Assembly: GCA_041660165.1 (NCBI GenBank)
Contig: JBAZWW010000004.1
Coordinates: forward strand, 14,839-78,838
Source of the DNA: Patescibacteria group bacterium
Lineage (GTDB): Bacteria > Patescibacteriota > Patescibacteriia > UBA9934
DNA length: 64,000 nt
Reading direction: 5' to 3'
Shown: positions 24,831-44,337 of the stretch, piece by piece
Layout: every line of letters begins with the position of its first letter
Numbering within the stretch: the stretch's first letter is position 1
Notes under the pieces: model-generated
Told to the model about the DNA's origin: nothing
The model's input: only the letters and a program-made list of their open reading frames with translations
The model's database searches: none
Made by a program: the position numbers and the translations under genes

Positions 24831-27800
24831 ATGCCGACTCCAATGGAAATACGTTTTCGCAACAAGGCATTCAGAATGATCTGGAGCGTTTGTTTACTTA
24901 TCGGACTTTCTTTTTCCGGTCTTTTAGTGGCGCGCGCTACAACTCCAAATCCAGGGCATCCTTGGGCAGGCGTTGGGGACGGTGTCTTTGCCATCACCGG
25001 CCCCTCAATTCTCCGCACCTTCACCTTTCCTGACGCGGACGCAACCGTTCTGACGTCGCTCACAAATGATTTTGACCGCGCCACTGCCGGCGCGCTGACG
25101 TTCGGAAATACAAACGCCACCTCCGTCAGCGTCTGCAACTCCCTGGCTTGTGACACTGTGGATATTGCCACAAATGCAGACGCGGACACCGTCACCATAG
25201 GCGATGCTCTAGACAGCGTTGCGCTTGCTTCAGCAAACTGGAGCATTACCGCGCCGGGAGTTGCCACCTTCTCCTCTCTTGGCCTCACCGGAGATCTTGA
25301 CCTGGCTACGCACATCATTACGAATATTGGCAATACCGGTACGGACTTTGTTGCCACTACCGGAGCACTTAATCTAGCGGGCGTCCTCACTGCAAACGGC
25401 GGAATTATCGTTGCAGCGAACCAAAACTTTACTATCGACGCTGGAACGGGAACGGCGACGTTCACAAGCACGGGCGGCACTTCGTTTGCTCGTAATTTAT
25501 TTTCATCCGGCACAAACGTCATTGCGGCCCAATTTGGAAGCGGATCTACGTCAGGGTTCACTGCTGACCAGTATGGTGGAGCAGTCCGGTTCAATGGCTC
25601 GGGTGTGGCATGGGGTGATATGTCATATTACCCAAATGGTGGAGCCAGCGGAAGCCAAGGAAATTTCAGACTCTCTACAACTGGTGGAGTACTCGCAACG
25701 ACACCAAGCGGTAAACTCGGGATCGGAGAATTATATTCAGTGGGTAACGTCGGCATTGGAACTGCGGCGCCAACTCGCATACTAGATATCGTCGGAGGTA
25801 GTCCCCGATTTTATAACTCCACCACGCCAACCTACAGCAGTTCAGTAAACTTAGGAGTGACCGCCCTTGACCTTGTAAATCGCGCCGCCAACGGCTCTGT
25901 TTCTGGCCTTCATGTTTACATGAGCGGAACAAATTCTGGAACGTTTCTCACGAGTACAGCGAGTTCTACCGGCTTCTGGTCTTCTGGCGCAAGATTTCAC
26001 GGTTCGGGTCTTTATGTTCCTACTGAAACTACCGCAACATCAATCATGGAAAATGCCGGAGCCATTCAATTTCTTTATGGTACTGGTCTAACGCCAGGAA
26101 CCACGACAGCATTAACTGAGTCGATGAGAATTTCAACCACCGGAAACGTAGGAATCGGTACCACGACACCAACAAAGCAATTAACTTTTGGTCAAGTGGC
26201 AGCTGATCCTATTCAAATCCGTCGCGACACAACATCCCAAGGAAATCCGGCGGTGGGCACAGGTATCTCATGGACGTGGAATAACGCAGCGGAGAACGAT
26301 AACACATGGGCAGCCATTAGAGCCATCATGCCTGGTAGCACTAATTCCCATTTAACTTTTTCAACAACCCCCGTCGCGGGTGGTGCGGCGGGTTTACTGG
26401 AAAGAATGAGAATTGAAGATTCAGGAGATGTTGGCATCGGGGATGCTACCCCGGCCTCAATGTTCACCGTGGGCAATGGTGATCTCTTTCAAGTAAACTC
26501 AAGCGGTGCTATTGCGGCCGCAACGGGAATCATCACGAGCGGGGCATATGTCCAAACGTACACTGGGACAGGAAATGCGGCCTCCATCACATCTACCTCA
26601 ACCACAAATGGCTCAAAAGGCCTCATTATTCAAAACACCGGTGCTGTCACCGGAACTGGCTACGGTGGCATGTTCATAAAATCTGGGGTATCTACAACCA
26701 ATGTGGGTCTCTACGCTTCCGCCTCCGGTGGAACAAATAATTACGCGGCCATTTTTGATGCGGGATACGTAGGAATCGGAACCGCGAGTCCGATAGCAAA
26801 ATTAAATATACAGGGCAGTTGGGCTCAAACCCTACTAGATGGCGACAACGTTGTCATAAGAAAACCAAACTACGCCGGAGGCGGGTGGGCCAGAACTTTG
26901 ATGAATTTCCAAGAATATGACGGAACGACAATCACTAGCTTAGGAGCACTCGGCACTAACAATACCTTCGTTTACGGATTCATTGGAGCCGCCTACAACG
27001 ACGCCGCAATCCAGTGGTACCCCGATAAAACCGTTACCCTCGGTGGCAACGTCACCACCGTAGGTAGCGTTGGTATTGGGGATACCACTCCGGCCTCCAT
27101 GCTCACCGTGGGTAACGGCGACCTCTTCCAAGTAAACTCAAGCGGTGCTATTGCGGCGGCAACGGGGATTATCACAAGCGGGCAATACGCGCAAACTTTC
27201 GCCGGCACAACAACCGCGGGAGCTACAATCACCGCGAACTCGCTTACAACCGGTACGGCACTCATTATTCCTCACACGACATCAGTCATCGCATCCGGTG
27301 GCTCGCTCATTCGAGCATCCTCATCATCCGTTGATACTTCAACAACGACAGGAACGCTCCTTGACCTTGCGTCAACCGGTTCAACCGCAGGAACGATTGC
27401 TTTGATCACGAATAACACCGCTCTTTTTACCGGCATTAGCGAATCAATTTCAAACACGGGTCTGACCACGGGTACAGGACTCGCCATTACCGGCGGGAGC
27501 ACAATTACCACAAATGGTGAACTCGTTAATCTCGACATAAGCACCTCCACCGCAGGACAGGCACTCAACATCCAAGGAACAGGCAACTATGCCGGTACCG
27601 GACTTGTATCCATCGTAGAAAATAATTCGTCAATGACGAGCGGTATCGGGCTCCTTCTCAGTAACGTAGTGACCGGCGGAAATACAAACTCCCCACTTAT
27701 CTCCCTTCAGGGAAACGGCTACACCGCAATTGGCCCTACGAACATTACCGGTGCGTTTACGCTTCAAACCATTCCGTCCAATGGCTCAGCGGGCAAACTC

Positions 27801-29282
27801 ATGATCGCTCAGACTGGCTGGGGCGTGGCAGCGGCCAATGATCTTTCCATTTCTGAAACCGGTGCCGTTGTGACAAGAGGCGGTGTCACTACCGGTGCCG
27901 GTACCCCTGACATTGCGGAAAACGTACCCGTGTCTGACCTCACGCTAGAAAAGGGCGATGTCATGGCTCTTGATACCTCCGCAACCGGCGACGGATCACT
28001 TTACAACAACTTCAAAGCAAAAAAAAGCCAGTCCGCATATGATAGCCAGCTCCTTGGTGTCGTTTCAACGTCTCCAGGTCTCATCCTCAACGGGCCGGAC
28101 AATGTTGCGGATGAGAACATGAGCAAACCGAACGAACGGCTTCTTGCACTTGCCGGCCGTGTTCCGGTAAAAGTCTCTGATCAAAATGGACCGGTAAAAC
28201 AAGGCGATTATCTTACATCCTCTTCAACTCCCGGCGTCGCAATGAAAGCAACGCATGCTGGTGCTGTCATTGGACAGGCACTTGAAAATTGGGACACAAC
28301 GTCTGGCAAGACCCAGGTACTTATCAGCGTAAAACCGGGATATTACAACGGAGAAAGTTTGAACGAAGTGGCAGGAACATCAGACCAAATCCTTGCGAAG
28401 CTTCTTGCGGATCAAACAAGCGGAGGAGCACTGACCGCATCAGCCGAGCTACTCACCGGACGCATCGCGGCAGGACTCGAGATCATCACACCGAGCATCA
28501 CCTCAAAGGGATTGAGGATCGACAACATCACTGCGCTCAATGACATCATCTCATTCCAGTCTGACATCGCATTTATTGGCCGGCCGTTCTTTAACAAAGA
28601 CACCGGTGGATTCGCCGTTATTCATACTGGCGACACTTCAGTACACGTCGCGTTTGAAAAACCATATATCGCAACACCTGTTGTTCAAGCGTCAGTGACA
28701 TTCGACGAACTCGCAGATCCCATCGCCCAAGCGCAAGCCGAAACAGATTACTTTGCGAGCGGAACACAGCTCATCATCACCAGAAAATCTCTAGCGGGAT
28801 TCACCATCATGCTGAACGTGCCCACAACAAAAGATCTGAAGATCAACTGGCTAGCACTCGCTATCACGGACGCTCGAACAGATGAGTCCGTTCCCACGTC
28901 AACCGCACCTGTTACTGCCTCAATTAATCCGGTGACAACGATTGATCCAGCGCCCTCTGCCCCTACTACTACAATAGATCCTGCACTCACCACATCAACC
29001 ACGACGACCGTTGTTGATCCAACAGCTTCAACTTCAACCACCACCACGGTTACAGACCCTACCGCAGTAGTCACAGATCCAGCAGTAACCGCAATTGATC
29101 CAGCACTCACAACTACAACAGCCACCGTTGTGGATCCCACGGCAACAACCGTCGATCCTACACTCACAACTACATCAACTACCGTCGATCCGACAGTCAC
29201 CACCGTTGACCCCGCACCTGCTCCAGCCCCTGCTCCCGATCCGGCTCCGGCTCCCGCACCCGATCCTGCACCGGTTATTTAA
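24831..29282 (+). CDS. giant secreted protein with tail-fibre/hemagglutinin-like Gly-rich repeats and a C-terminal Thr/Pro-rich tandem-repeat tail
   Basis: 1483 aa with an N-terminal signal/anchor. It carries repeated modules …GIGTTTPTKQLTF…, …GIGDATPASMFTVGNGDLFQVNSSGAIAAATGIITSG… (twice) and …GIGTASPIAKLNIQG…. The C-terminus is [TVDP/TTT] repeats followed by PAPAPAPDPAPAP. Confidence 0.8.
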   Translation: MPTPMEIRFRNKAFRMIWSVCLLIGLSFSGLLVARATTPNPGHPWAGVGDGVFAITGPSILRTFTFPDADATVLTSLTNDFDRATAGALTFGNTNATSVSVCNSLACDTVDIATNADADTVTIGDALDSVALASANWSITAPGVATFSSLGLTGDLDLATHIITNIGNTGTDFVATTGALNLAGVLTANGGIIVAANQNFTIDAGTGTATFTSTGGTSFARNLFSSGTNVIAAQFGSGSTSGFTADQYGGAVRFNGSGVAWGDMSYYPNGGASGSQGNFRLSTTGGVLATTPSGKLGIGELYSVGNVGIGTAAPTRILDIVGGSPRFYNSTTPTYSSSVNLGVTALDLVNRAANGSVSGLHVYMSGTNSGTFLTSTASSTGFWSSGARFHGSGLYVPTETTATSIMENAGAIQFLYGTGLTPGTTTALTESMRISTTGNVGIGTTTPTKQLTFGQVAADPIQIRRDTTSQGNPAVGTGISWTWNNAAENDNTWAAIRAIMPGSTNSHLTFSTTPVAGGAAGLLERMRIEDSGDVGIGDATPASMFTVGNGDLFQVNSSGAIAAATGIITSGAYVQTYTGTGNAASITSTSTTNGSKGLIIQNTGAVTGTGYGGMFIKSGVSTTNVGLYASASGGTNNYAAIFDAGYVGIGTASPIAKLNIQGSWAQTLLDGDNVVIRKPNYAGGGWARTLMNFQEYDGTTITSLGALGTNNTFVYGFIGAAYNDAAIQWYPDKTVTLGGNVTTVGSVGIGDTTPASMLTVGNGDLFQVNSSGAIAAATGIITSGQYAQTFAGTTTAGATITANSLTTGTALIIPHTTSVIASGGSLIRASSSSVDTSTTTGTLLDLASTGSTAGTIALITNNTALFTGISESISNTGLTTGTGLAITGGSTITTNGELVNLDISTSTAGQALNIQGTGNYAGTGLVSIVENNSSMTSGIGLLLSNVVTGGNTNSPLISLQGNGYTAIGPTNITGAFTLQTIPSNGSAGKLMIAQTGWGVAAANDLSISETGAVVTRGGVTTGAGTPDIAENVPVSDLTLEKGDVMALDTSATGDGSLYNNFKAKKSQSAYDSQLLGVVSTSPGLILNGPDNVADENMSKPNERLLALAGRVPVKVSDQNGPVKQGDYLTSSSTPGVAMKATHAGAVIGQALENWDTTSGKTQVLISVKPGYYNGESLNEVAGTSDQILAKLLADQTSGGALTASAELLTGRIAAGLEIITPSITSKGLRIDNITALNDIISFQSDIAFIGRPFFNKDTGGFAVIHTGDTSVHVAFEKPYIATPVVQASVTFDELADPIAQAQAETDYFASGTQLIITRKSLAGFTIMLNVPTTKDLKINWLALAITDARTDESVPTSTAPVTASINPVTTIDPAPSAPTTTIDPALTTSTTTTVVDPTASTSTTTTVTDPTAVVTDPAVTAIDPALTTTTATVVDPTATTVDPTLTTTSTTVDPTVTTVDPAPAPAPAPDPAPAPAPDPAPVI
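28900..29280 (+). repeat. imperfect tandem repeats (about 27-33 nt units) encoding a Thr/Pro-rich low-complexity tail
   Basis: Reiterated gatcc(a/t)gca…acaac(t/c)ac… units, translated as TIDPALTTSTTTTVVDPTASTSTTTTVTDPTAVVTDPAV…. Confidence 0.7.
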
Positions 29283-29345
29283 GCTGTCGCTCAAAAAAAG
29301 TGTCCGTGGTAGTATAGAAGCACTCATAAACGAGGAGGTTTTGCT

Positions 29346-29771
29346 ATGAAAAAAATCGCCCTTGCCGTACTCACTGCTATCGCCATAGTCTCAATCGCCG
29401 GGAATTTTTACCTTGGCCATAAACTCACCGCCCTCGCAAAAAATGTTGCCCCTGTTGATGATTCCGCAAAAATCATTACCCAAGTAGGAAAACTTATTGA
29501 ACTCCCTGACGGGGAAACGCCGACAATCGCCAAAGTAGATGACCCTGAACAACTCAAAAAACAGGGACTTTTCCAAAAAGCACAAAAAGGCGATACCGTC
29601 CTTATTTACCCCACAGAAAAAAAAGCTATCCTCTATCGTTCTTCGGAAAATAAAATCATTGAAGTCACCAGCGTGAACGTTACTGAAACACTGCCCACAA
29701 AAACTCCCGCGCCTGCCCCAGCACCCGTTCCCGCTCCGGCCGTAGCACCAACCGTACCACCCACTCCGTAA
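29346..29771 (+). CDS. small membrane-anchored protein with a PA-rich C-terminus
   Basis: N-terminal transmembrane helix and a …TPAPAPAPVPAPAVAPTVPPTP tail; an RBS-like GAGGAGG lies upstream. Confidence 0.5.
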   Translation: MKKIALAVLTAIAIVSIAGNFYLGHKLTALAKNVAPVDDSAKIITQVGKLIELPDGETPTIAKVDDPEQLKKQGLFQKAQKGDTVLIYPTEKKAILYRSSENKIIEVTSVNVTETLPTKTPAPAPAPVPAPAVAPTVPPTP

Positions 29772-29799
29772 ATGAAGAAGTCGGGTCACACCAGGATGT

Positions 29800-30771
29800 A
29801 TGACGCGTGCCCTCCGCTCCATTTTTCTTACGCTATCCTTTATAGGGATTCTTCTTGGTGCACCCGTAGCAAATGCAGGCACTCTTTCATGTACCGTTGC
29901 CACAACATGTCCAACGGGCACCGTGGTTTATCGGCTCTATGACCCAAACGGTAACCACGCAGAGATGCCAAGCCAATCGCTCTATACTTATCTAGCGTGC
30001 TGTACAGGCGTGCCTGGTCTGGGAAATAGCTGTATCACCGGTACAAATGCGGTAGTAGTAAAACTTTCCGGAACAAGCAATGCGCACATAGAACAAAACG
30101 CCCAAGCAAACTACGCTAATGACGCCTGCTTGTCAGTTGATACAGGCGGAACGGTTATTGTTGGCTACCAACTAGTGAACTGTAGCGGTTTTGATACCAC
30201 CATCGGCTCTATGACCGCCGTTACCAATAGCCACGCTGGTGACGGAAGCGCCTATGCCATTAAAATTTGTGCCACCGCGCTCGCCCCGCAAACCTTAACC
30301 TTTGACGTTTCAGATGCCACCATTGGATTCGGAACCCTGTCCTCCGGAGCCGCTCGATATGCCACGGGAAACCTGGCCGGATCTGCGTCTGAGGTAGAAG
30401 CGCACACGCTCAGCGTCAGTTCAACGGCATCAAGCGGATACACGCTCACTGTAAGAGGAGACACGCTGGCGAATGGCGCAAAAACAATTACGGCAATTGG
30501 CGGAACAAACACCGGATCAAGCCCTGGCTCGGAACAATTCGGCTTACGATTTGTTCCCTCCGGCGGAAGCGGAACGGTGACAGCTCCATACGCAGCTGCG
30601 GGATTTGCCTTCAACGCCACCGGAACATCCACCGTTCAAATAGCCTCAACAACCGCTCCTGACACTACGCCAACCGTATTTTCCGCACGCTATCTTGCAA
30701 ATATTACCGCCGTAACAGAAGCGAGCGACTACTCCACAACACTTACCTACATAGCCACCGGAACGTTCTAA
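29800..30771 (+). CDS. secreted surface protein, paralog A (Cys-rich N-terminal region plus a shared 190-aa C-terminal beta-rich domain)
   Basis: Signal peptide. The C-terminal domain …LTFDVSDATIGFGTLSSG…AHTLSVSSTASSGYTLTV…TITAIGG…SEQFGLRF…TAPYAAAGFAF…YLANIT…YSTTLTYIATGTF is clearly homologous to the next gene's C-terminus. Confidence 0.6.
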   Translation: MTRALRSIFLTLSFIGILLGAPVANAGTLSCTVATTCPTGTVVYRLYDPNGNHAEMPSQSLYTYLACCTGVPGLGNSCITGTNAVVVKLSGTSNAHIEQNAQANYANDACLSVDTGGTVIVGYQLVNCSGFDTTIGSMTAVTNSHAGDGSAYAIKICATALAPQTLTFDVSDATIGFGTLSSGAARYATGNLAGSASEVEAHTLSVSSTASSGYTLTVRGDTLANGAKTITAIGGTNTGSSPGSEQFGLRFVPSGGSGTVTAPYAAAGFAFNATGTSTVQIASTTAPDTTPTVFSARYLANITAVTEASDYSTTLTYIATGTF

Positions 30772-30813
30772 TTTTTTGGTGGTATACTTGCACGCAGATA
30801 ATACTGTTTTGCT

Positions 30814-31935
30814 ATGGCAAGTACCCACAAACATTTTGTCCGTAAACTTTCACGATCGGCATTGAGCTTATTTTTTGGCGTTACCGCAATGATTGTTGGT
30901 CCGCTTCTACAGATCGGGGTTTTGACGCAATACGCCCACGCTGCAGGAATCTCTGTCGCGTCTGACACAATGACTAACCAGGCAACAAGCGCAACCTCAA
31001 CTCACACCCTTGTCTGGACAAGCAGTGGATCAAACGTTGCGAATGACACCATTGCCGTCGGCTTTGTCGTAGCTGATTTTACGTTCAATTTGGCGGGAGC
31101 GTGGCAAACAACTGATTTCACCCTTTCTGACGGATCACACGCAATACCAACCGCGCCATTAGCCGTTGGCGCAGCACCAGCCTGTACGGCCACAGATAAC
31201 TATACTGTTACTGTTGCCCCAGTCTCAAGCACGCTGACTATCACCTTCTGTTCTGGCTGGGTGAGCGGTACATCACCCACCACTTTCACCGTTTATGGTA
31301 CGGCGACCACTGGCGCAGGAACAGTCACGAACAACGCAAGTAACGTAGAATCGTCGATTATTTCCATTACATACGCATCAACTAACACCACGAGTGGTAA
31401 TGTGGCCGTTGCCATTGAACCAAACGCAGACGTGGTTATCACCGCTACCGTGAACTCCACACTCACCTTCAATGTGAGTGACAACACCATCGGATTCGGC
31501 GTGCTGAGTTCTACCGCCGCCGCGTACGCAAACGGAGCAGGAACCGGATCGGCTACACCGGTCACCGCGCATACGTTTGACGTTGCAACAAACGCCGGGA
31601 GCGGGTTCACTGTTACTATCAGCGGTCCAACACTAACATCCGGAGCAAATACCATCACCGCAATTGGTGGCTCAAACACCGCCTCGGCAACAGGCACTGA
31701 ACAATTCGGTGTTCGCTACACAGAAGCCGGCGGAACGGGTGCAACGGTAACCGCGCCATACGCAGCGGCCGGCTACGCGTATGACGGCATTGCCGCTCCT
31801 TCTCAGGTTGCGTCATCAACGGGCGCAACTGCCACAGCAACCTACGACGCCATTTACCTCGCAAACATTGCAGGAGCTACTGAGGCAGGCGCCTATTCAA
31901 CCACTATTAACTACGTTGCCACGGGGCACTTTTAG
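30814..31935 (+). CDS. secreted surface protein, paralog B (shares the C-terminal domain with 29800-30771)
   Basis: Signal peptide; …LTFNVSDNTIGFGVLSSTAAAYANG…AHTFDVATNAGSGFTVTI…TITAIGG…TEQFGVRY…TAPYAAAGYAY…YLANIA…YSTTINYVATGHF. Confidence 0.6.
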   Translation: MASTHKHFVRKLSRSALSLFFGVTAMIVGPLLQIGVLTQYAHAAGISVASDTMTNQATSATSTHTLVWTSSGSNVANDTIAVGFVVADFTFNLAGAWQTTDFTLSDGSHAIPTAPLAVGAAPACTATDNYTVTVAPVSSTLTITFCSGWVSGTSPTTFTVYGTATTGAGTVTNNASNVESSIISITYASTNTTSGNVAVAIEPNADVVITATVNSTLTFNVSDNTIGFGVLSSTAAAYANGAGTGSATPVTAHTFDVATNAGSGFTVTISGPTLTSGANTITAIGGSNTASATGTEQFGVRYTEAGGTGATVTAPYAAAGYAYDGIAAPSQVASSTGATATATYDAIYLANIAGATEAGAYSTTINYVATGHF

Positions 31936-31987
31936 AAAAAGGTCTATCGCACGGTTCCCCTAGACAGTCTGGGCGGTACTTGAGAAC

Positions 31988-32989
31988 ATGTACCCAGCTA
32001 TGAAGTACTCGTTTTTTAGTCTTCTTTTTGTGCTTTGCGGGGTCTTTTTTTGGACGAACCACGCTTCTGCACTTACCGTTTCTCCCGTCAAAATGGAGAT
32101 TGGCGGTGATCCTGGCCAAATTCTCACCGGAGATACGTATCTCGTGAATGAAGAAAATCACGAGATGACGTATTATTCTTCATTTGAAAAATTCGACGCT
32201 CAGGGAGAATCAGGCAATCCCGTCTTCTCACCCACCACGGAAGGACTCGCCACCTGGATGAGCATTCGGCCAAGCATCACTATCCAGCCCCACGCCCGCC
32301 TCACCGTCCCCTATCGCATCACCATTCCAAAAAACGCCCCGCCAGGCGGAAATTTTGCGGCCATTTTTTGGAATACGGTTCCGCCAAGCAATCTTGATTC
32401 CACCCAAGTAGCAATTGGGGCAAAAGTCGGCATCCTTGTTCTTCTTAGGGTATCCGGAGACATCACAGAAGGAGGAACGCTTTTATCGTTCGGTATTGAA
32501 AACGGCCAAACTTTTTTCACTACTCCGCCCGTTGGCCTCTGGTATCGTTTCAATAATAACGGGGAAGACCGCGTCAAACCTTCGGGAACCATAACCATCA
32601 AGAATACGTTCGGCATGAAGTCTGCTCAATTCAACGCGAATCCCACAGATGGCAACGTGCTCCCCGGGAGTATTCGCCGGCTAACCACGGCTTGGAATGA
32701 TAAAGACGCTTGGGGGAATGATATACAACCGCCGGAACAAAAAAACTTTGGGACGCTTGCCCTCTATGAGCTCAAACATTTCCATCTTGGCCGATTTTCC
32801 GCCAGTCTTCATCTTGAATACGGCACTGCAGGAAAAACAGTGGACGCCAAAGTCTCATTCTTCATGATTCCCTGGCACGCCCTCGTCATCATTATCCCGG
32901 CTCTCATCATCCTCATGATCCTTGGTATAATCTCTATCAAACGGTACAACCGTTGGATTATCGCAAGGGCCAATGCGTCGCGGTCATAA
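31988..32989 (+). CDS. cell-surface protein with N-terminal signal and C-terminal TM anchor (DUF916/DUF3324-like architecture, tentative)
   Basis: 333 aa with signal peptide …WTNHASALTVSPVKMEI…, a beta-rich ectodomain and a C-terminal hydrophobic helix followed by basic residues (…IIIPALIILMILGIISIKRYNRW). Confidence 0.5.
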   Translation: MYPAMKYSFFSLLFVLCGVFFWTNHASALTVSPVKMEIGGDPGQILTGDTYLVNEENHEMTYYSSFEKFDAQGESGNPVFSPTTEGLATWMSIRPSITIQPHARLTVPYRITIPKNAPPGGNFAAIFWNTVPPSNLDSTQVAIGAKVGILVLLRVSGDITEGGTLLSFGIENGQTFFTTPPVGLWYRFNNNGEDRVKPSGTITIKNTFGMKSAQFNANPTDGNVLPGSIRRLTTAWNDKDAWGNDIQPPEQKNFGTLALYELKHFHLGRFSASLHLEYGTAGKTVDAKVSFFMIPWHALVIIIPALIILMILGIISIKRYNRWIIARANASRS

Positions 32990-34031
32990 AAATCATGGAG
33001 CATTTTTCGTTCTCTCTCTTGGCGCGCTTCTCCTGGCGGCGGGTGTTTGGCATTTTGTCGAGCTCTCCCGCGCATCAATTTCCAACACGGTAACAATCAC
33101 CGCCACCGTTCTTGGCTGTGGAGATGGCATTATTCAACCAGGCGAAGCTTGCGACGGCGCAAACATGAACAGCCGGACGTGCATTACTGAGGGATTTACT
33201 GGCGGAACGATAAGTTGCCAGGCTAACTGCACGCTACAAACGTCTGCCTGCACCGGCGGAACGCCAAGAAGTGGAAATGTTGGTGCAATCGGCTCTGTTT
33301 CTTCGTCAAGCGAAACCTTCCTGGGGCTCGCCTATCCCAACAGCTCAGTCGCTATCCTCAAAGACGGCCAGCTGGTGGCGACCGTTGAAACGGATGCGAG
33401 CGGAGGCTTTAGCTCAAAAATCACAAACCTTTCTATCGGTACTTTTGCGTTCGGTTTTGTAGCCACGGATACGCTCGGCAATCACTCAGCGCTTACAACC
33501 GTTGAGATTACCGCCAGCGGGAGCTCAACCACTACCCGTGACATTTTCCTTTCGCCAACCATCGCTCCCATCGGTTTTTTTGTCTCATCAAGTGCCGTCG
33601 TAGCAGTCACGGGGTCAAGCGCACCTGACGCAGACGTCAGGCTTTCAATTACATCAGTCTCCGGCGATGTTATCCTCACGCGCCATGCCCAAGCCGATGC
33701 GAATGGCGAATATTCCATACAGCTCGCTCCGAACGCCCTTCCTGCGGGGTCATATACCGTCACCGCGACTGCCACACTCGGCGGACTCACAAGCACGCGC
33801 AGTTTGCCGGCCTCTTTCGCCATCGGCGCCCCCAACGCACCCCTCTCATATCTAAAAGGCGACTATAACGAAGATGGCCAGGTAAACCTGGTGGACTTCT
33901 CTATCGCGCTTTACTGGTACAAACAACCGCTCAGCCCGGCTTTCAAGGTACTTGAACTACACCATGGCAACGGCGATGGAATACTCGACCTGGTTGATAT
34001 CAGCATTCTTGCGTATTTCTGGACCGGCTAA
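32973..34031 (+). CDS. membrane-anchored protein with Cys-rich module, Ig-like repeats and a C-terminal dockerin-like pair of Ca-binding repeats
   Basis: The C-terminus GDYNEDGQVNLVDFSIALYW…GNGDGILDLVDISILAYFW matches the duplicated dockerin EF-hand-like segment (DxNxDGxxxxxD). The N-terminus has a transmembrane helix and a CGDGIIQPGEACDG Cys-rich motif. Confidence 0.6.
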   Translation: MRRGHKNHGAFFVLSLGALLLAAGVWHFVELSRASISNTVTITATVLGCGDGIIQPGEACDGANMNSRTCITEGFTGGTISCQANCTLQTSACTGGTPRSGNVGAIGSVSSSSETFLGLAYPNSSVAILKDGQLVATVETDASGGFSSKITNLSIGTFAFGFVATDTLGNHSALTTVEITASGSSTTTRDIFLSPTIAPIGFFVSSSAVVAVTGSSAPDADVRLSITSVSGDVILTRHAQADANGEYSIQLAPNALPAGSYTVTATATLGGLTSTRSLPASFAIGAPNAPLSYLKGDYNEDGQVNLVDFSIALYWYKQPLSPAFKVLELHHGNGDGILDLVDISILAYFWTG

Positions 34032-34034
34032 TCT

Positions 34035-34925
34035 ATGTTCATCCTTGCCAAAAGAATGTCCGTCCTTATTCTCTCCTTCCTCATGCTTATTCCGCGAGCA
34101 CTTTTTGCGGCGCAAGTGACCGTTCTCCCCCAACAAACCGCGGTTATTCAAACCGCCGAATTCCAGACAAACATCACCGTGGACACCGGGGGCGAATCCA
34201 TCAACACCTTCGCCGGAACGATTACGTATCCGGAAAATATCATCGCCCTCAAAGAAATTCACAGTGGCAACTCAATCGTCAACTATTGGGTCGAGGCGCC
34301 AAAAAATGCCAACAACAAGATCACCTTTTCAGGCATCACGCCCGGCGGATATGTTGGCAATCATGGGTTTCTTTTCTCGCTTGTCTTTACAGCCGTCAAA
34401 CAAGGCAACGGATCTATCGCGATCAGCAATCCGCTCTTCCTCAAAAATGACGGGCTGGGAACTTCGGCTAGAATCGCTATCTCGAACTCGAGCATCAGCG
34501 TGCTACCGCCGGATCAACGGCGAAACATTGTCATCCCTCCGCTTCAAGACGCCACCCCACCGGAACCGTTCCGGCCGGAAATCTCGAAAACGCCGGTCCT
34601 GTTTAATGATTCATGGACTCTCTTCTTTGGAGCGGAAGATAAGGGATCTGGTATTGATCATTACGAGGTCCAAGAATACTCGCCGGGAATTTTCAGTTTC
34701 TTCTCGCCGTGGATTCGCACAACGAGTCCATATCTCATCAGAGATCAATCACTTGAGAAAGCCGCGGCCGTCAGAGCGGTTGATAAAGCGGGGAACATTC
34801 GTACGGCCCATGTCCTTCCGCGCAACGCGCCCGCCTGGTATGCCAATCTCACGAACTGGTTCCTCTTGGCGAGCGGACTGGCAATCCTCGCGGTGCTTAA
34901 AACCTTTCTATGGCGAAAACGATAA
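34035..34925 (+). CDS. cohesin-like domain surface protein with C-terminal TM anchor
   Basis: Signal peptide and a beta-sandwich segment …QVTVLPQQTAVIQTAEFQTNITVDTGGESINTFAGTITYPENIIALKEI…NGSIAISNPLFL… resembling a type-I cohesin; C-terminal transmembrane helix. Confidence 0.5.
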   Translation: MFILAKRMSVLILSFLMLIPRALFAAQVTVLPQQTAVIQTAEFQTNITVDTGGESINTFAGTITYPENIIALKEIHSGNSIVNYWVEAPKNANNKITFSGITPGGYVGNHGFLFSLVFTAVKQGNGSIAISNPLFLKNDGLGTSARIAISNSSISVLPPDQRRNIVIPPLQDATPPEPFRPEISKTPVLFNDSWTLFFGAEDKGSGIDHYEVQEYSPGIFSFFSPWIRTTSPYLIRDQSLEKAAAVRAVDKAGNIRTAHVLPRNAPAWYANLTNWFLLASGLAILAVLKTFLWRKR

Positions 34926-35857
34926 AACACCTGGCATTCAGCCTCACCGCAGTATTCTTTTTTGCAGTCGGCGCTCTGCCGAACGTGAGCCAGGCGGCCA
35001 GCCTTTCTTTCTCCCCCGCCTCCGCCGTAACCACAGTTGGTACGCCGTTCACCGTAACCGTTCTGCTCTCAACTGAGGGTGTGGTGGCAAATGCTGTTGA
35101 CACAGTGCTCTCATTCCCCACAGATAAACTCACCGTCAGCAAAATCTCCCCAGAAAATTCCATTCTCTCTTTGTGGGTGCAAGAACCAAGCTACTCAAAT
35201 ACCGCCGGCACCATCACCTTCACAGGCGGAACGCCAAGGCCCGGTTTTAACGGCGCGTCCCTAGTACTCGCCACCATCACTTTCGTTCCAAAAATGACCG
35301 GAACATCCATCATAACCATCACAAATGGCTCTGTCCTCTCTGGGGATGGATTGGGGACGGAATTACTAAAAAGCTTCAACGGAACGTCTGCCACGTTCAC
35401 CACGAACCCGACTCCCCCATCGGCGCCTGCTCCCGCTCCAACGCCGGCAGGTACGTCGCCAAACCCCTCCGTCGTGCCCACAGCCACTTCTGGCGTGCCC
35501 GCAATACCCGCACCAGCCACTCCAGAATCACCCCCGTCCGCTAATTCACCCAGCACGCCTCCGGAAATCCCCACCAGGCCAGCCGTCTCTCCGGCACCTG
35601 TCACCCCCCAAACGGTCAGCAAAGAACAGCCAGCCCTGCGATGTCCTACCGTCCCCGCTCAAACGCTCCCTGTTCGTCTTCTCAGAACCTGGCCGATTGA
35701 TCTCCTCATCTTCCTCACCGGCATCATTATTGGGTTTCTTATGCGAGAAATCATTCTCCTGGCGAAACGGCCAAAGACTCCGCCAAACAAACCTAGCGCG
35801 AAGACCCGTAGTACCCCCGTTCCTCCACCGGTAACATCCCCGCAATCTTTGCCATAA
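34910..35857 (+). CDS. cohesin-like domain surface protein with Pro/Thr/Ser-rich linker and C-terminal TM anchor
   Basis: Signal peptide; …SLSFSPASAVTTVGTPFTVTVLLSTEGVVANAVDTVLSFPTDKLTVSKISPEN…ATITFVPKMTGTSIITITNGSVL… cohesin-like fold signature; PS/PT-rich linker; transmembrane helix. Confidence 0.5.
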   Translation: MAKTIKHLAFSLTAVFFFAVGALPNVSQAASLSFSPASAVTTVGTPFTVTVLLSTEGVVANAVDTVLSFPTDKLTVSKISPENSILSLWVQEPSYSNTAGTITFTGGTPRPGFNGASLVLATITFVPKMTGTSIITITNGSVLSGDGLGTELLKSFNGTSATFTTNPTPPSAPAPAPTPAGTSPNPSVVPTATSGVPAIPAPATPESPPSANSPSTPPEIPTRPAVSPAPVTPQTVSKEQPALRCPTVPAQTLPVRLLRTWPIDLLIFLTGIIIGFLMREIILLAKRPKTPPNKPSAKTRSTPVPPPVTSPQSLP

Positions 35858-41606: not shown

Positions 41607-42599
41607 TCAACAAGCTAAATTATGAACCGCCTCGGCCAAACCAAACGTATTGCCATGTCCAAGAAGACCCAGATATGAGGCAACTACGCCTTCTTCCGGC
41701 TCAGCTCCGAGCCTCCTCATCATTCTGCGTTTTGTCGAACCCCTTAAGACCCGATGATCCGAAAATTGTACCCACCCTAAGAAATCCACCCCCGAAGCCA
41801 TTGTTCGGAGCTCGATCTTTTGTGGGTGAAGTGTTAACTTCAGTTGGTCGAACAAAAACTGATGAACAAGTGGGAGAACAGATTCGAGATACCCTCGATG
41901 ACGCGACAAAAATACAAAGTCATCCGCGTATCTCACATAATGTCTGATATGCAACTGATGCTTCACGTATTGGTCGAGTTCATTCATGTATACGTTGGCG
42001 AGTATCTGACTGGTCAAATTTCCTAGTGGCAATCCCACTCCTGGCACTCCCGACGGGAAGCTCTCGATAATCTGTTGAATACACCACATGATGCGCCAAT
42101 CGGCTATTCGCCGATCCAATATGAGAAGAAGTGTACGTTGGTCTATAGACGCAAAAAACTTTCTCACATCACACTTCAACACCCAAACGGTTTTTCGATG
42201 ATTCATCGATACTTCTTGTGCCATCCGAGTGAATCGATTATTCGCTCGATGAGTGCCTTTGGCGATCCTGCATGAAAAAGAATCAGCAATAAACGTCCGG
42301 TCAAAAAATGGATACAACTTTCGATACAATGCCCGATGGAAAATACGATCTCGAACAGACGCTTTATGAATCTGCCTTTTCTTTGGATCGTTAATAACAA
42401 AAGCTCTATATGGCTCATGACGATATGACATGTCCACAAGTGAGGCGTGCAAAGCCAGCAGATTGCTCATAAGGTTCCGGGCAAATTCTTGGACGTCCGG
42501 TTTAGAGCGCTTCCCGGGCAAAAATTCTCTCCATGCCACGAGCAAATTCTCGACGGAAATTATGTCTTCGTATTTTTCTTCAAAAATAATTCTGCCCAT
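41607..42599 (-). CDS. diversity-generating retroelement reverse transcriptase
   Basis: 330 aa with RT motifs: YADDFVF (motif C) and, in motif-4 position, LPLGNLTSQ. That is the DGR-specific [ILV]GxxxSQ signature, which replaces the QGxxxSP of group II introns. A DSFSCRIAKGTH block typical of DGR RTs is also present. There is no maturase/endonuclease extension. A TR/VR pair is adjacent. Confidence 0.85.
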   Translation of the reverse strand: MGRIIFEEKYEDIISVENLLVAWREFLPGKRSKPDVQEFARNLMSNLLALHASLVDMSYRHEPYRAFVINDPKKRQIHKASVRDRIFHRALYRKLYPFFDRTFIADSFSCRIAKGTHRANNRFTRMAQEVSMNHRKTVWVLKCDVRKFFASIDQRTLLLILDRRIADWRIMWCIQQIIESFPSGVPGVGLPLGNLTSQILANVYMNELDQYVKHQLHIRHYVRYADDFVFLSRHRGYLESVLPLVHQFLFDQLKLTLHPQKIELRTMASGVDFLGWVQFSDHRVLRGSTKRRMMRRLGAEPEEGVVASYLGLLGHGNTFGLAEAVHNLAC

Positions 42600-43000
42600 A
42601 TGAGATCATTTAACGTCCCCCCCCCCCGAAACTGCTCCCACTACTTGAAGACTTAAAATCTGCATATCTTGTTTGGTTTTTATACTACCAGACCATCCCC
42701 AAAACACACAGGTACACTCTCGGCGGTCGTATCGATGATTTGCTGGTAGACATGATCGAAGCGACTGCCACAGCGGGCTTTCTAGCTAAAGCAGAGAAGC
42801 TTCCGTATGTCCGAGTCTCAATCCGAAAACTAGATACCATAAAAGTGCTTCTCATGGTGCTGTGGGAAACGAAATCACTTAACGACAAGCAATACATCAC
42901 CCTTTCAGAAAAGTTTGAAGCGATTGGCAAAATGCTCGGTGGCTGGCATGGACAGCTCACCAAACAAACAACCCCAGGAAATATCCCGGGGCAGAAATGA
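42600..43000 (+). pseudogene. avd: avd (DGR accessory variability determinant, four-helix-bundle family), interrupted by an 11-C homopolymer
   Basis: The frame ending at TGA 43000 encodes …IPKTHRYTLGGRIDDLLVDMIEATATAG…LSEKFEAIGKMLGGWHGQ. This resembles Avd/23S-rRNA-IVS four-helix-bundle proteins (…SIPRKHG…, …EVGRILGSW…). The only upstream ATG (42600) is out of frame by 1 nt across the C run at 42617-42627. 12 Cs would fuse MRSFNV-PPPP-KLLPLLEDLKSAYL… into a roughly 133-aa Avd. Confidence 0.6.
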
Positions 43001-43004
43001 AACC

Positions 43005-43135
43005 TCTGGCGGAGACCGCAGCCGGGTTGTTGCCGTTCCACTGGTTGCTGAGCCAGTTGTAGTTCACGTACCAGTTCTGGCCATTCCAGTTGAGGTAGTA
43101 GACGTACACCTTGTCGTTCACCGGGTTGCGGAATC
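43005..43135 (-). repeat. DGR template repeat (TR)
   Basis: 131-bp repeat matching 43482-43612. All 23 mismatches fall at plus-strand T, which is minus-strand A, in this copy. This copy is therefore the invariant template. Confidence 0.85.
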
Positions 43136-43372
43136 ACGTGAAGTGCCATCCATAACACCATCCTTTGACTACTCTGAGGATTGAATCGAATTCGTGATAA
43201 TAATCACCTAGCACTCCACGCCAAGTTTTTTCATGTCAAAATCCGGAAAAGCCACGCTATTCCAAGCCGTAACCAGAAATATTCTGGACAAATTCGAATC
43301 AGGTTTGGTAGCCAGAAGTCTTAACCGCCGGCATATTCACCTTACCCGGACAAAGTATAACTCCAAATTGAA

Positions 43373-43405
43373 GAGGAGCTCCACGCAACGTTGCGCAGAG
43401 CTCCT
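43373..43405. promoter_or_regulatory. near-perfect 33-nt palindrome (cruciform-capable hairpin) 3' of the VR
   Basis: gaggagctc-cacgcaacgttgcgcag-gagctcctc, lying about 60-90 nt downstream of the target-gene stop on the coding (minus) strand. Confidence 0.6.
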
Positions 43406-43463
43406 CACGCGAATCCGAAAGTGCAAAGGACTGAGGATCTAAGGGCTAACGTGCCTAAGGATC

Positions 43464-44144
43464 TCAGGTCACAGTGCTGGGACTTGCGGAGACCGCAGCC
43501 GGGTAGCTGCCGTCCCACCGGCCGCTGAGCCAGCCGTAGTACACGCACCAGTGCCGGCCACTCCAGTCGAGGTAGCAGACGCACACCCCGGCGCTCACCG
43601 GGCTGCGGAAGCCCTCGCCCCAGAAGAAGATGGCGCCCGCTGTCTTCCAGCCCTCCGGAATGAAGTCCAGATTCGCCTTGAGCGCATCCAGCTCATTCTT
43701 GGAGGAATGGCCGGGCACGGCCTTCAGCTTCTCGTCCCAGAGGACTTGGCCGTTGATGCCACCATCGGCCAACTGGGCAGGGTCCACGTGGAACGTCATC
43801 GGCACGCCGTTACGGAGCAGAATCCGGTCCTTACCCGTCCCCTGCCAAGTGAAGATCACCGTGCTGGGCTTGACCACGTTCCATGCCCGCTCGGCCGTAT
43901 CGAACGGAAGCTGGGAAGGGACGTCGTTGTAGACCTCGAGCGTGTGCTCGTCGATCCGCTTGAAGCGGAGCGGGGCCGGGGCGGGCTCGGGCGCGTTCGC
44001 CCCCTTGAAGGCGTCAACGCGACGCTTGAGCGCGTCCTTGTCCGCGAGACATTCCTCCGCCTCTTCCATGGACATGCCCGCTTGCGCGAACTTACCCACG
44101 AGAGCAAGGAGCTGGCCAGCCGGGAGCTTCAGAAGGTTCGTCAT
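43464..44144 (-). CDS. DGR target protein (small protein with C-terminal VR in a C-type-lectin-like segment)
   Basis: 226 aa from MTNLLKL… with AAGGATGGG as RBS. The C-terminal W/G/Y-rich segment coincides with the VR. No signal peptide is evident. Confidence 0.75.
   Translation of the reverse strand: MTNLLKLPAGQLLALVGKFAQAGMSMEEAEECLADKDALKRRVDAFKGANAPEPAPAPLRFKRIDEHTLEVYNDVPSQLPFDTAERAWNVVKPSTVIFTWQGTGKDRILLRNGVPMTFHVDPAQLADGGINGQVLWDEKLKAVPGHSSKNELDALKANLDFIPEGWKTAGAIFFWGEGFRSPVSAGVCVCYLDWSGRHWCVYYGWLSGRWDGSYPAAVSASPSTVT
43482..43612 (-). repeat. DGR variable repeat (VR) at the 3' end of the target gene
   Basis: Matches the TR with 23 substitutions, exclusively at TR adenines (minus-strand sense). 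It encodes the C-terminal 45 aa of the target protein (…FFWGEGFRSPVSAGVCVCYLDWSGRHWCVYYGWLSGRWDGSYPAAVSAS). Confidence 0.85.
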
Positions 44145-44337
44145 GTGACTACCCATCCTTTCATAATGCCGTCGGTACACCCTGTATGCGATCTATTCGC
44201 CTACAAGATTTCCCTGTGTTAAAAACGGCTGTTCTTGGCTAATGTTTGGCCAGAAACAGCTATTTTCAACCTAGTCATTATAACAAAAAAATGCACTTTT
44301 GTCAATGTTATAGGGCCATAATACAAAGAGCTCCTAC

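Follow-up and report, generated by a model that had tools for sequence, protein, structure and literature searches.

The window analysed here is a stretch of 64,000 nucleotides (nt) from the genome of an uncultured, ultrasmall Patescibacteria group bacterium (assembly GCA_041660165.1, contig JBAZWW010000004.1, positions 14,839 to 78,838). Three adjacent genes on its plus strand encode a secreted protein that ends in a dockerin, named DocP (32973-34031), and two membrane proteins that each carry a cohesin, named CohA (34035-34925) and CohB (34910-35857). The order of these genes, one dockerin gene (DOC) followed by two cohesin genes (COH), is conserved across Patescibacteria, and in the window the trio closes a gene cluster that also encodes two Pam-type pilins.

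Dockerin and cohesin modules of the three proteins

DocP contains 352 amino acid residues, and its domains were assigned from a family alignment, Pfam, and an AlphaFold2 (AF2) model. A signal peptide (residues 1-34) is followed by a donor-strand-like segment, a Cys-rich repeat (residues 48-93), two immunoglobulin (Ig)-like domains (residues 109-192 and 200-285), and the dockerin. Judged by eye, the signal peptide would be cleaved behind the tripeptide SRA, directly before the next serine, and the AxA-type sites in the relatives are clearer. The Ig-like domains match Big_6 (E = 4.3e-10) and Big_13 (E = 1.8e-7) in Pfam, while the Cys-rich repeat matches TIGR02232 at a level below the cutoff (E = 6.4e-4), and DUF4215 is matched in two relatives.

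The last 59 residues of DocP (residues 294-352; 33852-34028 on the plus strand) are a dockerin, as seen in Pfam, the family profile, and the AF2 model. The module shows the duplicated 12-residue calcium loop and helix of dockerins, with two F-hand calcium loops (residues 297-308 and 331-342), three helices, and an invariant WTG at the C-terminus. The ligand positions 1, 3, 5, 9, and 12 of the first loop are occupied by the canonical residues D297, N299, D301, N305, and D308, and those of the second loop by H331, N333, D335, D339, and D342, of which position 1 alone is non-canonical. According to the family alignment, this position is His within the DocP clade and Asp or Leu in remoter relatives. 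In the AF2 monomer model, which has an overall predicted local distance difference test score (pLDDT) of 82, the three helices of the dockerin (residues 306-315, 322-331, and 340-351) reach a pLDDT of about 90, and the first and the last of them begin inside the calcium loops.

Searches of the PDB with single sequences of the window proteins were weak or empty, and family alignments were needed to place the modules. DocP by itself scores 13.7 bits against Dockerin_1 (PF00404; E = 0.073), below the cutoff of 22.9, and its single-sequence search of the PDB gives weak but repeated matches to solved dockerins. At the family level, 13 of the 23 aligned members match Dockerin_1 (E <= 0.01), the best with an E-value of 8.6e-9, and the family profile retrieves the solved dockerins 2y3n_B (2.3e-5) and 4fl4_A (1e-4), together with 5nrm_B, 1daq, and 2mte (to 1e-3). 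These profile matches cover precisely the last 55 residues. The dockerin is also the most conserved region of DocP in the family alignment and holds 11 of the 17 invariant columns, including the terminal WTG. A Foldseek search with the model of the whole protein returned tandem-Ig proteins only and hence says nothing about the dockerin.

CohA (296 residues) consists of a signal peptide (residues 1-25), a cohesin (residues 26-160; 34110-34514), an Ig domain resembling OmpL47 and FN3 (residues 170-262; 34542-34820), and a transmembrane helix (residues 272-295; 34848-34919), all on the plus strand and assigned from the AF2 model, Foldseek, the family hidden Markov model (HMM), and hydropathy. CohA is modelled with a pLDDT of 92.3, and the model shows the nine-stranded jelly-roll of cohesins. 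Cohesins make up all of its top 50 Foldseek matches in the PDB, with template modelling (TM) scores of 0.7-0.8 and root-mean-square deviations (rmsd) of 2.5-3 Å. The top match overall is 2w1n, a cohesin-FN3 construct, and the best single-domain superpositions are those on 2xdh (TM score 0.80), 2vo8 (0.79), and 1g1k (0.75), which are non-cellulosomal and type I cohesins.

CohB (315 residues) consists of a signal peptide (residues 1-30), a cohesin (residues 31-171; 35000-35422), a Pro-rich stalk (residues 172-260), a transmembrane helix (residues 261-284; 35690-35761), and a short Pro/Lys-rich cytoplasmic tail; these parts, likewise on the plus strand, come from the family HMM, profile matches, and hydropathy. 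Neither CohA nor CohB of the window matches a cohesin model in Pfam (at E <= 1) or NCBIfam, but 22 of the 40 CohB-family members (best 1.8e-10) and 11 of the 57 CohA-family members (best 1e-7) match Cohesin (PF00963), and both family profiles retrieve Ruminococcus flavefaciens cohesins from the PDB (5aoz and 5m2o). For the OmpL47/FN3-like domain, NF047446 is matched by 44 of the 57 CohA relatives. An hhalign comparison shows homology between the two families (probability 100, E = 2.4e-51), which have the motifs LWVxEP and NDGxGT in common, and it is by homology to the modelled CohA that a cohesin fold can be predicted for CohB. Hydropathy gives a signal-like N-terminal segment and a C-terminal transmembrane segment in both proteins. 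CohA and CohB each display one extracellular cohesin on a stalk, Ig-like in CohA and proline-rich in CohB, that is anchored by the C-terminal transmembrane helix.

Most CohB relatives are larger (400-700 residues) and have two parts that the CohB of the window lacks, a further Ig-like domain and a long, conserved tail in the cytoplasm. In the family alignment (A2; for example P0014, P0026, and P0029), this tail extends for ~100 residues after the transmembrane helix, is charged, and appears coiled-coil-like by eye, which suggests a connection of the surface socket to the interior of the cell. One public annotation of this contig (locus L001) omits CohB and calls a 143-residue antisense open reading frame (ORF) at 35191-35622 on the minus strand. 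The real gene is the plus-strand CohB (34910-35857) and not the antisense ORF, because homology places its product in the CohB family.

An earlier note on this DNA, made from the sequence alone, had read two tandem dockerin-type calcium-binding segments at the end of the ORF 32973-34031 and an N-terminal cohesin-like β-sandwich plus a C-terminal anchor in each of the ORFs 34035-34925 and 34910-35857. The first claim is borne out by the family profile matches, the ligand pattern, and the three predicted helices, and the segments lie at residues 296-315 and 332-350; the second agrees with the PF00963 matches of the families, the model of CohA, and the transmembrane hydropathy. Of the checks that it proposed, structure prediction returned a compact, type-I-like cohesin jelly-roll for CohA and a three-helix, two-loop dockerin for DocP, and the Pfam and HMM searches succeeded in part, in that Dockerin_1 and Cohesin are matched at the family level while the window proteins themselves remain below the thresholds.

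Gene order of the cassette and its neighbours in the cluster

The ORF check of the 64-kb window shows that the genes of DocP, CohA, and CohB are co-oriented on the plus strand and, as the earlier note had described, overlap or abut: the DocP gene overlaps the preceding gene by 17 nt, a gap of 3 nt separates it from the CohA gene, and the CohA and CohB genes overlap by 16 nt. The trio ends a co-directional cluster of eight genes (24831-35857), which is flanked by a RarA/MgsA-like gene upstream and a convergent acyltransferase gene downstream. The order of all eight genes recurs unchanged in two other loci (L004 and L007). Proteins identical to those of the window occur in public metagenome-assembled genomes labelled 'Patescibacteria group bacterium', and the nearest species-representative genome scanned carries the label Candidatus Uhrbacteria, with a CohA identity of 63%. 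In a scan for promoters and terminators, sites were rarer than in shuffled sequences, so that the scan is uninformative on the operon boundaries.

Six-frame HMM scans of the whole window detected no dockerin beyond that of DocP and no cohesin beyond those of CohA and CohB. The scan of species-representative genomes found CohA relatives encoded at 415 stretches, and an exhaustive search of 1.84 billion cluster representatives with the CohA profile gave 2,997 proteins at E <= 1e-30, mostly of about 300 residues and aligned end to end; this family size of ~3,000 counts clusters at 50% identity. In 86 loci, the order is DOC, COH with an Ig domain (about 300 residues), and COH with or without an Ig domain (400-700 residues), wherever the contig allows. 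Inspection of the neighbourhood in related genomes, which had also been proposed, confirmed the adjacency, with a COH gene directly after DOC for 66 of the 70 full-length DOC genes. On one contig, which is represented by both L005 and L023, the first cassette is followed ~5 kb downstream by another DOC gene and a further pair of cohesin genes. Each DOC gene there has its own two cohesins, which indicates a dedicated pairing and no pooled scaffold.

Troman et al. described the Pam pilus in June 2026, in what is its only structural study, from cryo-EM of the filaments of Ca. Mycosynbacter amalyticus (10.64898/2026.03.03.709456). In its pilins, a linker strand joins an N-terminal sandwich to an open C-terminal Ig-like domain; the linker of one pilin fills the C-terminal domain of its neighbour, and in the model the donor is the incoming, more proximal pilin (10.64898/2026.03.03.709456). 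Assembly is aided by the membrane-anchored, PapD-like chaperones PamC and PamD, and PamT is a tip pilin without a linker. PamR, in which an N-terminal strand and two FnIII domains are followed by a transmembrane helix, is the proposed terminator and membrane tether, a single-protein tether that was proposed from AlphaFold models. The supplement gives masses of 32.8 kDa for PamR and 37.4 kDa for PamD, and neither cohesin nor dockerin is mentioned anywhere in the preprint or its supplement (10.64898/2026.03.03.709456).

The two paralogous secreted proteins that the earlier note saw upstream of the trio are Pam-type pilins, both of which carry the Pam pilin C-terminal domain with scores above the NCBIfam cutoff of 55 bits (NF058581, CPR_Pam_pilin_C). 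Pilin 1 (29800-30771, plus strand; 323 residues; 65.4 bits) has a putative linker or donor strand, IKICATA, before its C-terminal domain. In pilin 2 (30814-31935, plus strand; 373 residues; 70.8 bits), the linker or donor strand ADVVITATVNS (residues 205-215; 31426-31458) stands immediately before a C-terminal acceptor domain that starts with TLTFNVSD. The trio does not lie directly downstream of these paralogues as had been stated, since a 333-residue gene (31988-32989, plus strand) stands in between.

The product of this intervening gene is a WxLIP-like (DUF916-type) protein with a signal-like segment, a predicted β-rich ectodomain, and a transmembrane helix at residues 299-317, assigned from the family profile and hydropathy. 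By itself it has no match in Pfam, but 19 of its 27 relatives match WxLIP_PGBD (PF06030; E <= 0.1, best 1.8e-6), and the family profile (A4) matches EfmWxLIP1 (9i25_C) with an E-value of 4.8e-4. In size it is near PamD (333 residues vs. 37.4 kDa), and its family matches WxLIP and no Pam-named model; NCBIfam scans of the CohA family and of the family at the chaperone position likewise returned no Pam-named model. It is the probable counterpart of a membrane-anchored Pam chaperone. At the profile level it appears to belong to the WxLIP family, and its predicted layout is that of the WxLIP proteins (DUF916-DUF3324) of the WxL clusters of Firmicutes, namely a signal peptide, β-sandwich domains, and a C-terminal transmembrane helix (PMC10599100; EfmWxLIP1, 9i25/9i1y). 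Unlike in WxL clusters, the pilins gave no sign of a WxL domain, and their C-terminal domains showed no WxL relationship in Pfam or the PDB. We know of no report of WxL clusters with cohesin or dockerin genes. The probable membership of a protein at the Pam chaperone position in the WxLIP/DUF916 family points to a possible evolutionary relationship between Pam pili and WxL clusters; WxL is not mentioned in the Pam paper (10.64898/2026.03.03.709456).

Two further observations concern the pilins. The closest labelled relatives of this genome are Uhrbacteria and bacteria of the Parcubacteria type within the Candidate Phyla Radiation (CPR), and Pam pilins were reported mainly in Saccharimonadia and Microgenomatia (10.64898/2026.03.03.709456); their presence in such a genome means that the Pam system may be more widely distributed than published. 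In addition, operons at four loci (L009, L015, L019, and L084) encode proteins of about 900-1400 residues with the Pam pilin C-terminal domain at their end; these are possibly tip adhesins or large pilins.

The first gene of the cluster (24831-29282, plus strand) encodes a giant secreted protein of 1483 residues with a signal-like segment (residues 16-34), G[ND]VGIG repeats, and a tail at the C-terminus that is rich in Thr and Pro; no match to it was found in Pfam or NCBIfam. The second encodes p141 (29346-29771, plus strand), a protein of 141 residues with an N-terminal membrane anchor that always accompanies the giant protein. Both were delineated from their ORFs and hydropathy, and p141 also from other loci, where its homologues sit between the giant and the dockerin genes. 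Homologous giants lie upstream of the dockerin-cohesin trio in 17 loci, and giants (up to about 2400 residues elsewhere) with p141 recur directly upstream of the trio in L006, L013, L067, L077, and L079. The window is unusual in having the giant and p141 together with the pilin and chaperone set.

Outside the cluster, the window contains a diversity-generating retroelement on the minus strand (41607-44180), with a reverse transcriptase (RT) gene (41607-42599), a template repeat of 128 nt (43006-43133), and a target ORF of 238 residues (43464-44180) whose 3' end holds the variable repeat (43483-43610). Of the 22 mismatches between the repeats, 21 fall on adenines of the RT-proximal copy.

A pilin-like strand in DocP and the proposed tether

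At its predicted mature N-terminus, DocP carries a pilin-like candidate donor strand, TVTITATVL (residues 39-47; 33087-33113 on the plus strand), that was recognized by its similarity to the linker of pilin 2. Residues 40-46 (VTITATV) are identical to residues 207-213 of that linker (VVITATV) at six of the seven positions. The family consensus at the strand is VTxTATVxGCGDG, and throughout the family the strand begins 1-5 residues past the predicted signal cleavage site. Paired changes are seen between the pilin linker and the DOC strand of the same locus, with VVVTATV and VTVTATV in L004, VAVSGTV and VDITGTV in L019, and VSVTATVPE and VEITATVPG in L060. When a position-specific scoring matrix (PSSM) of the pilin linker was scored on the first 70 residues against a background of 1,151 ORFs, 16 of 35 chaperone-linked DOC proteins exceeded the 95th percentile of the background vs. 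3 of 35 others, and the 99th percentile was exceeded by eight vs. none. In the AF2 monomer model, residues 39-50 of DocP have a pLDDT below 50 and no secondary structure, the look expected of an unpaired extension. Taken as sequence evidence, these features are suggestive of a donor strand in DocP.

Across the loci, the N-termini of DOC proteins take two main forms. In the first, a V-x-[IV]-[TS]-A-[TS]-V strand with alternating hydrophobic residues follows the predicted cleavage site and is itself usually followed by the Cys-rich repeat. The Cys-rich members of this form (class I), to which DocP of the window belongs, have the WxLIP-like, chaperone-like gene as the immediate upstream neighbour in 17 cases, a pilin gene in two, and p141 in none; eight DOC genes with the strand and without the Cys-rich repeat (grouped as 'other') likewise directly follow the chaperone-like gene. 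In the second form (class II), a different N-terminal domain (EFSSTNFKVLDPV...GFLYFP) is followed by an FN3-like segment, and the upstream neighbour is p141 in ten cases and the chaperone-like gene in one; in these loci, p141 is found together with the giant gene.

We consider it somewhat better than an even chance that the trio is a cohesin-dockerin tether, dedicated and non-cellulosomal, at the end of a Pam-type pilus operon, with DocP as a pilus-terminating adaptor docked on the membrane cohesins. In this model, cleavage of the signal peptide would expose the N-terminal β-strand TVTITATV of DocP as a mimic of the pilin linker or donor strand, and this strand would insert into the C-terminal domain left open in the pilin that is added last, at the pilus base. 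Since DocP itself lacks an acceptor domain, polymerization would end with it; a protein with a donor strand but no acceptor domain would stand at the base in the polarity model of the Pam pilus. The calcium-dependent dockerin of DocP would then plug into the cohesin of CohA, CohB, or both, and the filament would be held non-covalently on the cytoplasmic membrane. The job proposed for PamR would thereby be divided between a dockerin adaptor and cohesin anchors. We infer both the cohesin-dockerin contact and the strand insertion from the features described above. The idea in the earlier note of a membrane-anchored cohesin-dockerin docking system for the assembly of surface proteins is supported in its parts by the family profiles and predicted folds, with binding as a prediction, and is sharpened here to a dedicated set of one dockerin and two cohesins with no general scaffold.

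Several points weigh against this reading. The dockerin and the cohesins of the window lie below the Pfam gathering scores, and position 1 of the second calcium loop is occupied by His. The strand motif spans few residues of simple composition (V/T/I/A), and the PSSM score of DocP itself is modest (p = 0.018 vs. the background). About half of the DOC-COH-COH trios elsewhere follow a giant protein and p141 and are without pilins and chaperone, which means that the trio is not pilus-specific. The window, too, encodes such a giant protein, and this could be the real cargo. The model would also change if the N-terminal helix of DocP (residues 9-33 in the AF2 model) were an uncleaved anchor, and PamR of M. 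amalyticus (32.8 kDa) could be a homologue of CohA instead of an analogue of DocP.

In a broader proposal, which we put forward tentatively and hold to be rather less than evenly balanced, the trio would be an exchangeable socket that fastens surface appendages to the membrane of cells without an outer membrane and is used throughout the phylum, with a fixed cohesin pair and a swappable dockerin adaptor whose N-terminus sets the cargo, a pilin donor strand for Pam pili and another domain for giant fibres.

Alternative readings and relation to known systems

The strongest competitor, which we regard as unlikely but deserving serious weight, takes DocP as a stand-alone secreted Ig-like adhesin or spacer displayed on CohA and CohB, co-regulated with the pilus and giant fibre genes and outside the pilus. 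The absence of pilins and chaperone beside the trio in many genomes would be natural for such a protein, as would the Ig domains of adhesin type in DocP (Big_6 and Big_13, with matches to Bap and SiiE-like proteins), and the strand motif is short and of low complexity. What argues for the pilus adaptor instead is that an N-terminus with the strand goes together with the chaperone gene, that the strand resembles the linker of the cognate pilin and co-varies with it, and that, like a donor strand, it is placed exactly at the predicted start of the mature protein.

It is improbable, in our estimate, that the cargo of the socket is the 1483-residue giant fibre, attached via DocP, p141, or both, with the pilin and chaperone genes as a lineage-specific insertion. 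The arrangement of giant, p141, DOC, and two COH genes without pilins does recur in 17 loci, and by hydropathy the giant has no anchor of its own. The DOC proteins of those loci, however, are of class II, with the EFSSTNFKVLDPV...GFLYFP domain and the FN3 segment; DocP of the window lacks that domain and is of class I, the type that accompanies the chaperone and the pilins.

Slightly less probable still is a likeness of fold without docking, in which the dockerin tail is a calcium-binding stabilizer, the cohesin-like domains bind the host envelope, peptidoglycan, or pilins, and CohA might be a tether of the PamR type. The sub-threshold Pfam scores of the window proteins and the His in place of the first calcium ligand of loop 2 would fit this explanation. 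Type I dockerins usually carry a Ser-Thr recognition pair, and DocP has Leu-Val at the corresponding sites (residues 306-307 and 340-341). CohA, with 296 residues, two β-sandwich domains, and a transmembrane helix, also fits the size and layout reported for PamR (32.8 kDa). Nevertheless, the adjacency of dockerin and cohesin genes is near-obligate across hundreds of species, the dockerin is the best-conserved region of DocP, and LWVxEP and NDGxGT are kept in both cohesin families; moreover, in the AF2 model the first strand of CohA is not free but built into the fold.

A cellulosome-like enzyme scaffold for polysaccharide degradation has nothing in its favour besides the cohesin and dockerin modules and was rejected as barely credible: the 64 kb hold one dockerin and two single-cohesin proteins, the dockerin is borne by a protein with Ig domains, this CPR host has a reduced genome, and no enzyme domain or carbohydrate-binding module (CBM) occurs in the operon proteins, with no glycoside hydrolase or CBM domain found in DocP, CohA, or CohB in Pfam or NCBIfam.

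The modules themselves can be compared with those of cellulosomes. The cohesins of type I pairs, such as CipA Coh2-Xyn10B Doc of Clostridium thermocellum, 2vn5/2vn6 of C. cellulolyticum, and CaCohA2-Doc0917 of C. acetobutylicum (6kgc-6kgf), adopt the same jelly-roll as CohA, with Foldseek TM scores of 0.70-0.76 and rmsd values of 2.5-3 Å, and the sequence identity to solved cohesins is 11-16%. Cellulosomal dockerins have the same duplicated F-hand layout as DocP, with Asp or Asn ligands at positions 1, 3, 5, 9, and 12 and three helices, but DocP differs from type I dockerins in its invariant terminal WTG and in the Leu-Val pairs at the Ser-Thr sites. Unlike cellulosomes, the system of the window has no multi-cohesin scaffoldin, no CBM, and no enzyme cargo. 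Cellulosomal anchoring proteins use a surface-layer homology or sortase anchor, whereas the cohesin proteins of the window have one cohesin and their own transmembrane helix each.

The closest structural matches are non-cellulosomal cohesins, namely 2xdh of Archaeoglobus fulgidus and 2w1n, 2vo8, and 2jh2 of the Clostridium perfringens proteins GH84C and GH33, and 2w1n has the same two-domain layout of cohesin and FN3-like domain as CohA. These modules are likewise used outside cellulose degradation, but they are carried by soluble enzymes and toxins, whereas the cohesins of the window reside on dedicated membrane proteins with a single pass, encoded in a fixed cassette of three genes tied to surface-filament genes. 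Cohesin-dockerin modules outside cellulosomes are therefore already known; the literature searched, which covered cohesins and dockerins in CPR/Patescibacteria or in connection with pili, held no account of a cassette of one dockerin and two membrane cohesins tied to CPR surface filaments.

Judged by the published description, DocP is similar to PamR in its predicted N-terminal β-strand, its two tandem Ig/FnIII-like domains, and its lack of a pilin acceptor domain. PamR has its own C-terminal transmembrane helix, while DocP has a dockerin in its place, and the transmembrane helices are found on the separate cohesin proteins. In chaperone-usher pili, terminators of the PapH type have a donor strand, cannot accept one, stop growth, and hold the fibre. 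The role proposed for DocP would follow the same terminator logic, by analogy with PapH-type proteins and the basal subunits of sortase pili. Unlike in those systems, no usher, outer membrane, or sortase would take part, and the proposed anchoring is non-covalent.

The cultivated members of the CPR/Patescibacteria are epibionts, and their surface filaments are implicated in contact with the host cell. If the tether model is true, the cassette is a concrete answer to how a filament is held on a cell without an outer membrane. Under the socket proposal, the Pam pilus would be the first pilus anchored through a cohesin-dockerin bond, and a component missing from the Pam model would be supplied. 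Pam pili have been called 'easily untethered', a property that a calcium-dependent joint could account for. Cohesin-dockerin biology would then extend from enzyme scaffolding to filament anchoring, and the cassette provides an annotation for thousands of 'hypothetical proteins'.

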